DNA from: Escherichia coli
Lineage (GTDB): Bacteria > Pseudomonadota > Gammaproteobacteria > Enterobacterales > Enterobacteriaceae
Strand: one strand, 5' to 3'
DNA: 64,000 bases
Assembly (NCBI RefSeq): GCF_003334255.1
Contig: NZ_QOWU01000004.1
The notes beneath the pieces are model-generated. The model did no database searches. It was given only the letters and a program-made list of their open reading frames with translations, and was not told the origin of the DNA. Shown here one piece after another: positions 11,960-15,369 of the stretch; position 1 is the first letter of the stretch, and every line of letters starts with the position of its first letter. Both the position numbers and the translations under genes were made by a program.

Positions 11960-12796
11960 TTATTTTTTCGCGGGTGAAACGACTCCTGGTTTGTACAAAG
12001 CCAGCAGTTCGTCCACCTTTTTACGTGTGCCGCCGTTGCTGCTTATACTGCGTCGAACTTTGACGACATGCAATTTTGCGCGCTGATACCACTCACGCGT
12101 TAACATCGTATCGTGATTGGAGATCAGCACTGGAATATGGCGCTCAACCAGACCTTCGGCGATCTCCGCCAGATGCGCTTGTTGTTCAAGCGTAAAACTG
12201 TTTGTGTGATACGCCGTAAAGTTGGCGGTCGCAGACAGCGGTGCATAAGGCGGATCGCAATAGACGACGGATGCATCATCTGCGCGCGCCATGCTATCGG
12301 CGTAAGACTCACAATAGAAAAAGGCATTCTGCGCTTTTTCAGCGAAGTGATACAACTCTGCTTCCGGGAAATAGGGTTTTTTGTAGCGGCCGAACGGCAC
12401 GTTAAACTCACCGCGCAGATTGTAACGACACAGGCCGTTGTAACCGTAGCGGTTCAAATATAAAAACAGTACCGCCCGACGGAACGGATCCTGGCTTTTG
12501 TTGAACTCTTCGCGGAACTGATAGTAAACCTCGGCGCAATTTGTTTCGGGAACAAACAGCTCGCGTGCGGCCTGTACGTACTCATCAGTACGCATCTTCA
12601 CAATGTTATAGAGACTGATCAGGTCGCTATTGATATCGGCAAGGATATAACGAGAAAAGTCGGTGTTGAGAAACACCGACCCGGCACCTACAAAAGGCTC
12701 AACCAGACATTCGCCCTTGGGCAAATGCCGTTTAATATCATCAAGCAGGGGATACTTGCCCCCTGCCCACTTCAAAAAAGCGCGATTTTTCTTCAT
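11960..12796 (-). CDS. dam: DNA adenine methyltransferase (GATC N6-adenine MTase)
   Basis: 278-aa ORF; DPPY catalytic motif ([10 protein letters not shown]) and an N-terminal AdoMet-binding region visible. Confidence 0.96.
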
Positions 12797-12902
12797 GCTG
12801 ACTAACTAATTACACCTTCTCCGGCTGTGGAGAAAGCTCCGACAGCATCCAGCGCTTCAGGCAACTCCCGCAACGATAAACCATTGCGGGAGATAACCTT
12901 GA

Positions 12903-14189
12903 TTACTTCAGATCGGCCTGTACCTGACGCAGCGGTTTCGCCCACGGGTTTTTGGCCTGGACATCTGCTGGCAATGTAGATACCGCTTTTTTCGCCTCTT
13001 CTTTCGAAGCGTACACGCCAGAAACCAGGACATACCACGGCTGACCATTACGCGTCGTTTCATAGACAACGTAGTTTTTCAGATTCTCTTTCTTCGCCCA
13101 ACCGTTCAGGTTGTCGTAGTTAGAGGAACTGCTCAGCTGCAGAGTGTAATGGCTGGACGGTGCCGATTTCAACGAACCAACATTACCTGCGGTCTTCGCC
13201 CCAGCAGCGGGTGTTGCCGTGGTTTGCGCCGGGGATGCCGTCTGTACTGGAGCCGTAGTCGCCGTCTCTTTTGGTGCTGGCGTAGAAGTCGCAGCCGGTG
13301 CCTTCGTGCTCGCCACAGGGGCAGCTGGTTCAGTACGCTTCGGCGTCTGTGCTACCGGCTTCGGCTCCGTTTTCACGGTTGCTTGCGGTTTTTTCGGTTC
13401 AATCACCGCCTGCTGACGAGCTGGGCGCGTAGTGGACGGACGTTCAGCGGTTTGCGTTTTCGCCGTGTCACGCGATGCATTGCCATTGCGAACAGGCGCA
13501 ACCGTTGCGGGTTCAGTCGGCAACGTGGAATTGACCGCCACATTGTTCAGCTGTTGCTGATTTTGTGGCTGGGTCAGCGCATTGTTCAGGTCACCCTGCA
13601 CTTCAACACGTTGTTGACCATCCGTTGCCACCGGGGTTTGCCCTTGAGTCGGCGTAGAAGAGATCGGTGGCAGAGAAACATCCTGCTGAGTATTTTCCGC
13701 AGACGTGGTTCCCGGCGCTGGCTGCACGCCATTCGCCTGATCGGTCGCATTGCCAGCAAGATCAATACTCTTCTCGCCAGACGCGGTTTGATCGCTGGAT
13801 GTGGTCGAGGGGGCTTTTAGCGCAGAACCGATACCGATGATCAACAGCAGTAGAACCAGAATGCCGACGCCCATCATCATATACTGACGAGAAGCGGGTT
13901 TACTGGCTGCTTTTTTGCGCTTACGCGGACGACGCTCTACGCGCTCTTCATCCACGGTTTCATCTTCGGATTCGTCAATTTCTTCTTCGATTTCCGGTTC
14001 CTCATTGCGCTCTTTTTGCGCACGAGTCGGACGGCGATCGTCAGTGTCATCAAGTTCAATATCATCAAAATTGATCTGCGGTTCGCCACGTTCAGTACGC
14101 TCAGAACGTTCAGAAGATTGACGAGAACGACCAGTACGACGATCGCTGGGATCGGGTTTCAGCTCGTCTTCTGGTTTGAATTCATCCAT
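12903..14189 (-). CDS. damX: Cell-division protein DamX (SPOR-domain protein)
   Basis: 428-aa ORF; acidic N-terminus, a single TM segment ([21 protein letters not shown]), a long Pro/Thr/Ala/Gln-rich low-complexity linker and a C-terminal SPOR-like domain. Confidence 0.93.
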
Positions 14190-14280
14190 TTAACACCCCA
14201 CTAAAAGGTTAATGCTTACCACGTTGCAATTAACCTGAAGCTAATAGACCGCTTGATAAGCGGCCTGACCTTTCTTGTTG

Positions 14281-15369
14281 TTACGCTGATTGACAATCGG
14301 CAATGGCGTTAAGAACAAGCTCGTGCGAAACGCCGCTGCGAACTTCACTCTTACCAATTGCCAACGGAAGAATTAAGCGCATCTCTCCCGCAAGGACTTT
14401 CTTGTCACGCAGCATATGCGGTAAATACGCCTGCGCGGACATTTCGCGCGGCCCATTGACCGGTAACCCAGCCCGCTTGAGCAGGGTTATAATACGCTGC
14501 GTTTCGGCAGAACTAAACTGCCCGAGACGTTCCGACGTCCGCGCCGCCATCACCATACCCGCAGCGACCGCTTCACCATGTAACCAATTGCCATACCCCA
14601 TTTCAGCTTCAATGGCATGACCAAAGGTGTGTCCCAGATTCAGTAAAGCACGTAACCCGGTTTCGCGCTCGTCGGCGGCGACAACTTCTGCCTTCAGTTC
14701 ACAACAACGGCGAATACAGTACGCCATTGCCGGACCGTCCAGACGCAACAACGCATCCAGATTCTCTTCCAGCCAGTTAAAAAACGCACCGTCAAGAATA
14801 ATGCCGTATTTGATGACTTCTGCCAGCCCCGACGCTAACTCACGCGGGGGAAGCGTTTTCAGACAGTCGAGATCCACCACCACTGAAGCAGGTTGGTAGA
14901 ACGCGCCAATCATGTTTTTACCGAGGGGATGGTTGACCGCAGTTTTGCCGCCAACGGAGGAATCGACCTGCGACAGTAACGTCGTCGGGACTTGAATGAA
15001 ACGGACACCGCGCTGATAACTCGCCGCCGCGAAGCCGGTCAGATCGCCCACTACGCCGCCGCCAAGCGCCACCAGCGTAGTATCGCGACCATGCGGTTTT
15101 TGTAACAACGCCGTAAAGACGGTATCGAGTACAGCCAGGCTTTTATACTGCTCGCCGTCAGGGAGGATAACGCTATCGACGTTAACACCCGCCTGTTCAA
15201 GTACGCCGCGGACCTTATCGAGATACAGAGGAGCCAGGGTTTCGTTGGTGACCAACATGACCTGCTCGCCCGATTTCAGCGGTAAGAATGAAGCTGGTTC
15301 ATTAAACAAACCAGATGCGATGGTAATTGGGTAACTACGTTCCCCGAGAGTAACGACAATCCTCTCCAT
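14281..15369 (-). CDS. aroB: 3-dehydroquinate synthase
   Basis: 362-aa ORF ([20 protein letters not shown]...). Confidence 0.96.

Follow-up and report, generated by a model that had tools for sequence, protein, structure and literature searches.

The periplasmic linker of Escherichia coli DamX: a predicted disordered, two-part tether of nearly fixed length

The SPOR domain of the Escherichia coli cell division protein DamX directs the protein to septal peptidoglycan and binds denuded glycans, according to literature on the K-12 protein, which is identical to the one described here. Published work describes the periplasmic tract of DamX as a mostly unstructured linker. This linker is the longest among the inner-membrane SPOR proteins, and its equivalent in DedD is flexible by NMR (PMC7642682).

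We analysed damX in a window of 64,000 nucleotides, which is the whole stretch of E. coli DNA under study (NCBI RefSeq assembly GCF_003334255.1, contig NZ_QOWU01000004.1). Compared with K-12 DamX (NF008153 / PRK10905; SPOR structure PDB 2LFV), the locus encodes the same protein with the same domain order and operon context, and no difference was seen. The literature already covers the gene, the arrangement of its domains and the lack of structure in its linker. The sole item absent from the literature searched is the presence of conserved motifs in the membrane-proximal part of the linker. Our preferred reading, which we consider very probable, is that residues 125-337 form the disordered periplasmic tether of a bitopic DamX, that this tether has two parts and a nearly fixed length, and that a long antisense ORF opposite it is a by-product.

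Gene identity and domain layout

The ORF listing of the window holds a 428-aa ORF exactly at the position of the gene:

12903..14189, minus strand: damX coding sequence, cell division protein DamX, 428 codons plus TAA (ORF list, NCBIfam and synteny)

The original prediction, made from the letters of the DNA, had named this gene damX, and its full-length profile match, SPOR domain, identity to the K-12 protein and synteny all agree with that name. The DamX equivalog of NCBIfam (NF008153) scored 848.8 bits, above its cut-off of 256, aligning residues 1-428 to positions 1-424 of a 424-position profile. The window gene and damX of E. coli G1/2 have 100% identical DNA, and the encoded protein, WP_000343215.1, is that of K-12; a K-12 derivative carries this same accession. 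Annotated neighbours in matching genomes give the gene order hofQ-aroK-aroB-damX-dam-rpe-gph-trpS; in the ORF list of the window, damX is flanked by aroB (14281..15369, minus strand) and dam (11960..12796, minus strand), with rpe beyond dam. damX is annotated in all 5426 of 5426 complete E. coli genomes. A single one of the 5426 matches lies on a plasmid-labelled record, which is probably a mislabelled replicon. An NCBIfam match to OapA, whose 17.8 bits (E-value of 0.0017) fall short of the cut-off of 400, was dismissed as low-complexity matching, and an Rfam scan of 12700..14400 returned no RNA family.

Outside the linker, DamX comprises the following parts:

13893..14189, minus strand: residues 1-99, N-terminal region on the cytoplasmic side, rich in charged residues (E 21%, R 16%, D 13%)
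14088..14115, no strand assigned: imperfect tandem repeat of 9 nt x 3.1, ACGTTCAGA on the plus strand (TRF score 42)
13818..13892, minus strand: residues 100-124, single transmembrane helix after RKRKK (hydropathy and AlphaFold2)
12906..13178, minus strand: residues 338-428, SPOR domain for binding to septal peptidoglycan (Pfam, PDB and AlphaFold2)

Half of residues 1-99 (50%) are D, E or R. Residues 1-20 are conserved family-wide and residues ~25-95 are variable; occupancy among 50 family members is as low as 0.2-0.35 at residues 31-90. Most family members lack residues ~25-95 altogether and have N-termini of ~38 aa. AlphaFold2 (AF2), which we ran on DamX with a 50-sequence family alignment, predicted disorder in residues 1-99 as well as in the linker: the N-terminal residues received pLDDT values of 42-57 and no secondary structure. 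PMC7642682, by contrast, describes the N-terminal region as 'likely folded'. The 9-nt x 3.1 repeat codes for SERSERTER in this region, outside the linker, and is the only tandem repeat that TRF found in damX. Five residues are absent at the repeat site in Salmonella and others.

DamX has one hydrophobic segment, at residues 101-124; its Kyte-Doolittle hydropathy peaks at residues 106-124 (2.66), and AF2 places a helix at residues 101-121 (pLDDT 85-90). These features are consistent with a bitopic protein whose N-terminus is cytoplasmic; the RKRKK preceding the helix fits the positive-inside rule, and the orientation is predicted. At the other end of the protein, Pfam PF05036 (SPOR) matched residues 345-418 with an E-value of 3.7e-14, the only Pfam match in DamX. 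The PDB entry 2LFV, 'Protein damX', covers residues 335-428, and AF2 modelled the SPOR domain with a pLDDT of 94-96 and a beta-alpha-beta-beta repeat pattern. Across 13 E. coli damX alleles, the SPOR domain carries no non-synonymous polymorphism.

Composition, predicted disorder and conserved motifs of the linker

Between the transmembrane helix and the SPOR domain lies the linker, residues 125-337, which we divide in two:

13500..13817, minus strand: residues 125-230, membrane-proximal half of the linker, predicted disordered and motif-bearing (alignments, dN/dS and pLDDT 38-54)
13179..13499, minus strand: residues 231-337, distal Ala/Thr/Pro/Lys-rich low-complexity tether (composition and family alignment)

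The linker was originally described as a Pro/Thr/Ala/Gln-rich low-complexity tract making up the middle third of DamX. Its composition was described correctly, its extent was not: at 213 of 428 residues the tract is about half of the protein. Residues 123-337 consist of 16.7% A, 16.3% T, 12.1% P and 10.2% Q, which together make up 55%, and residues 125-337 are devoid of F, W and Y. The window holds 45 non-overlapping ORFs with a length of 150 aa or more. Of these, DamX had the lowest 60-residue entropy (2.75, median 3.62), the highest fraction of P, T, A and Q (0.73, median 0.35) and the longest stretch free of bulky hydrophobic residues (76, median 13). Because DamX ranks first on all three measures, its bias lies far above the local background. 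The strongest low complexity is confined to about residues 251-340. Within the distal tether, entropy falls to 2.64 and the PTAQ fraction rises to 0.80, and the family alignment is gap-rich, with an occupancy of 0.3-0.7 and an identity of 0.12-0.29 among the 50 members.

Linker residues 125-334 received AF2 pLDDT values of 38-54 (39-54 in the distal half), although low values may also stem from a shallow alignment in gap-rich columns, and DSSP assigned no secondary structure over residues 122-336. Apart from one chance match, a PDB profile search with the 50-sequence alignment returned only 2LFV, and thus no solved structure beyond the SPOR domain. A charge-hydropathy (Uversky) calculation was set aside as uninformative, since it classed even the folded SPOR domain as disordered. 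The linker is predicted to be disordered, a reading that draws on the AF2 model and on the analogy with DedD. This agrees with what a disorder prediction was originally expected to show.

The original prediction had treated the linker as a single low-complexity segment. It is not uniform: the first half carries four strongly conserved motifs, EKSIDL at residues 139-144, one at 173-182, one at 192-205 and STLPTEPAT at 221-229. Among the 50 family members, which are 33-93% identical to DamX, the consensus forms are EKxIDL, QxRxExxGDLNxAL and SxLPTxPAT, plus the motif at 173-182. The motifs are conserved in 60-98% of these members, and single positions reach 98% (P224), 90% (P180), 88% (L144 and L205) and 84% (G199). 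In ten-residue blocks, the three motifs that lie in residues 171-230 had identities of 0.48-0.67 and the EKxIDL block 0.37, compared with 0.54-0.81 for the SPOR domain. In the Escherichia-Salmonella alignment, residues 173-184, 215-236 and 253-267 are invariant islands and residues 191-206 are at least 90% conserved. The dN/dS ratio for residues 173-269 was 0.05 against both E. albertii and Salmonella; the SPOR domain had ratios of 0.00 and 0.03, respectively. Judged from these alignments, the four motifs of the proximal half are about as conserved as the SPOR domain, and the distal half alone is a variable tether.

This conservation raises the possibility that residues ~139-229 act as a functional module, in which the motifs dock divisome or peptidoglycan-synthase partners (PBP1B, FtsQ, FtsN) and fold on binding, with the distal half serving as a length-selected spacer. 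We regard this as conceivable but somewhat short of likely. Besides motif conservation on par with the SPOR domain in 60-98% of members, and a dN/dS of 0.05 at residues 173-269 next to 0.03 for the SPOR domain, such a module would be in keeping with the interactions of DamX, which is reported to bind and stimulate PBP1B (PMC7642682) and to interact with FtsQ and FtsN (cited in PMC4981707). It would also resemble the FtsN linker, whose essential domain acts similarly. Conversely, the motifs received AF2 pLDDT values of 47-54, too low for a confident local structure, the Pfam and PDB profile searches of the proximal motifs had no match, and no experiment places any of the interactions at motif residues. 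Transmembrane regions may instead mediate such contacts, as PMC7642682 suggests for DedD and PBPs. The DamX literature searched contained no functional role for the proximal motifs. A functional module of this kind would complement the disordered tether that we favour rather than exclude it, and we consider the motifs a modest lead, as cheap, testable candidates for the interaction sites of DamX.

Linker length, polymorphism and the antisense reading frame

As low-complexity tracts were originally expected to vary in length between strains, the linker was compared across the 5426 complete E. coli genomes. Length differences centre on one region:

13209..13328, minus strand: indel hot spot, residues 288-327 (alignments), with a 12-nt (TPAA) site between 13275 and 13276

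For this census, which resolves indels of ~3 aa or more, the long form of the hot-spot tile (residues 277-337) was used as the query; matches with at least 95% identity were scored as long, and those with 90-95% identity and 12 gap columns as short. By this measure 5386 of the 5426 genomes (99.3%) have the short form and 40 (0.7%) have the long form with its additional 12 nt (TPAA), corresponding to linkers of 213 and 217 aa. None of the 5426 genomes fell below 90% identity to the long-form tile, and none had a further indel of at least 9 nt in it. Likewise, no indel of at least 9 nt (at least 3 aa) was found in residues 123-225, where the tiles had at least 95% identity in all 5426 genomes. 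For residues 226-276 (tile 13362-13515), in which SNPs blur the identity bands, length was taken from eight sampled genomes and was equal in all of them. Forty genomes, spread by rank over the 5426, were sampled for gene length: 39 had a gene of 1287 bp and one a gene of 1299 bp.

The 1299-bp allele, found in GF4-3, HS and relatives, has the extra TPAA after residue 302. One of the 40 long-form genomes, PCN061, additionally has one residue fewer in the N-terminal region. At the DNA level, ACGCCAGC occurs twice, at a spacing of 12 nt, in the long allele ACGCCAGCCGCA-ACGCCAGCACCA, and once in the short allele of the window. Since the long form is also carried by E. albertii, E. marmotae and another Escherichia species (432-433 aa), the 428-aa form of E. 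coli is probably a derived 12-nt deletion. Salmonella DamX likewise exists in two forms, of 425 and 429 aa, that differ at the site polymorphic in E. coli. The shorter form is the commoner one in both genera, and the longer form is carried by S. bongori and the non-coli Escherichia.

Larger changes are rare. Protein-database clusters from E. coli, Shigella and E. albertii, nearly all of them singletons and derived from draft and metagenome data, contain in-frame deletions of 13-40 aa that leave proteins of 389-415 aa. Six of these 11 deletion variants fall in residues 288-327, and the others lie at residues 137-162, 186-213 and 201-213, with two at residues 60-81 of the acidic N-terminal region. 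The deletion ends share 0-10 nt of exact microhomology, an approximate figure with the window allele standing in for the parental alleles. Either the tether tolerates some shortening or the strains carrying these deletions are impaired. Between E. coli and Salmonella, six small indels in the linker result in a net difference of only +3 or +7 residues, and among family representatives at 50% identity the linker ranges from ~100 to 265 aa. Linker length is plastic over long evolutionary distances and tightly held within species. Two metagenomic DamX proteins of 421 aa, from ENA contigs of 6.6 and 1.8 kb, combine a Salmonella-like N-terminus (SERDN, DVDL-DADD) with an E. coli-like linker and SPOR domain, and may be natural recombinants or chimeric assemblies.

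Under the alternative view, the linker would be a hypervariable, slippage-prone tract whose length commonly differs between strains. The recurrent 12-nt indel at residue ~302 and its polymorphic counterpart in Salmonella fit this description, as do the rare in-frame deletions, where these are flanked by microhomologies of 4-10 nt, and the range of linker lengths in the wider family. Against these stand the presence of only two length classes among the 5426 complete genomes and the total length of DamX, which is kept at 425-433 aa in both Escherichia and Salmonella even though their linkers are only 64-81% identical (64% with Salmonella for distal residues 270-337). Moreover, TRF found no tandem repeat in the linker (13179..13817), and a repeat search of the linker DNA found one 11-nt pair as its only hit and no long direct repeats. 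This lack of tandem repeats makes slippage rare and the length nearly fixed in E. coli, and the bias of the linker lies at the protein level only. We therefore consider a hypervariable tract very improbable. Strain-to-strain length variability within E. coli, as originally proposed, is largely refuted; what stands of the expected variation is the difference among distant genera and the rare singleton deletions. More generally, biased composition in a protein does not imply variable length if the underlying DNA is non-repetitive, and "low-complexity means strain-variable" is an unsafe inference.

Sequence variation within the linker is largely silent. Among the 13 E. coli alleles, third codon positions account for 59 of the 74 segregating sites in damX, whose piN/piS of 0.07 is equal to that of the linker (0.07). 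Purifying selection acts on the damX frame along the whole linker.

The amount of polymorphism differed along the gene. The linker (13179..13817) holds 58 segregating sites in 639 nt, compared with 16 in 645 nt elsewhere in damX (Fisher p = 2.6e-7), and nearly all of the linker polymorphisms are synonymous. Synonymous diversity (piS) is 0.093 in the linker, 0.12 in codons 173-269 and 0.017 in the N-terminal and SPOR parts, a trend repeated between species. Haplotype blocks are shared around codons 229-253, which suggests recombination mosaics. In 1609 of the 5426 genomes, the 154-nt tile 13362..13515 differs by 5-8% (up to 7.8%) from the window allele at unchanged length, an unusually deep divergence for a segment of a core E. 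coli gene.

Opposite the linker, the ORF list contains a long open frame:

13149..13820, plus strand: 'phantom' antisense ORF, 223 aa, 25.6% Arg, not a gene (ORF list)

This frame shares its codon register exactly with damX. Its Arg codons correspond, in reverse complement, to ACG (16), GCG (15), CCG (14), TCT (6), TCG (4) and CCT (2); as the Ala, Thr and Pro codons GCG, ACG and CCG read backwards as Arg, the antisense ORF becomes Arg-rich. It is long because TTA, CTA and TCA, which read backwards as stops, are almost absent from damX: the antisense stops come from only two codons in the whole gene, CTA at positions 113 and 124.

A real Arg-rich protein overlapping damX might be proposed from the 223 codons with an ATG start and from the frame, which is in register and open in 13 of 13 E. 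coli alleles. Its length, however, is what damX codon usage leads one to expect, with 35% of synonymous codon shuffles giving an equally long or longer open run. In its own frame piN/piS is 3.2, compared with 0.07 in the damX frame of the same 13 alleles. The frame is also interrupted in relatives, by stops at codon 214 in E. albertii, 176 and 337 in Salmonella, and 136, 179, 222 and 248 in a 63%-identical orthologue. The ORF had no NCBIfam match and no RefSeq annotation in matching genomes. An antisense gene is, on these grounds, exceedingly improbable. The ORF is a mechanical artefact of the damX reading frame, much as the original prediction had labelled it a phantom, and should stay unannotated.

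Proposed role of the tether and comparison with known systems

If residues 125-337 are the disordered two-part tether that we favour, they would bridge the transmembrane helix and the SPOR domain at the C-terminus and let that domain reach and bind denuded glycan strands in septal peptidoglycan. By polymer scaling, a random coil of 213 residues has a contour length of ~81 nm and a root-mean-square end-to-end distance of ~12 nm. The latter is of the order of the gap between membrane and peptidoglycan. Within such a tether, the proximal half (residues 125-230) would contribute short linear motifs, probably contact sites for the divisome or peptidoglycan synthases, and the distal half (residues 231-337) would be a freely drifting Ala/Thr/Pro/Lys-rich spacer. 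The single recurrent indel would arise between the two 8-nt direct repeats of ACGCCAGC, which are spaced 12 nt apart. Tether length is probably under stabilising selection, and selection of this kind on reach would account for a constant length combined with a drifting distal sequence.

In some respects the linker resembles simple-sequence contingency tracts, as it is a biased coding segment in which a 12-nt indel recurs, in frame, between short direct repeats. Unlike these tracts, it has no tandem array, its length is fixed in more than 99% of strains, and no phase-variable frameshifts were seen. Among the SPOR proteins, DedD has a linker of about half the length (residues 36-141), whose flexibility is known from NMR, whereas the disorder of the DamX linker is predicted only. 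FtsN differs from DamX in being essential and in that the function of its embedded motif has been demonstrated, and no sequence relationship between the two proteins was found outside the SPOR domain. Like DamX, however, FtsN is bitopic and has a periplasmic linker that is long, Gln/Pro-rich, mostly unstructured and followed by a SPOR domain, and in FtsN this linker has a short functional segment, the essential domain, embedded in it (bioRxiv 10.1101/2022.07.01.498525).
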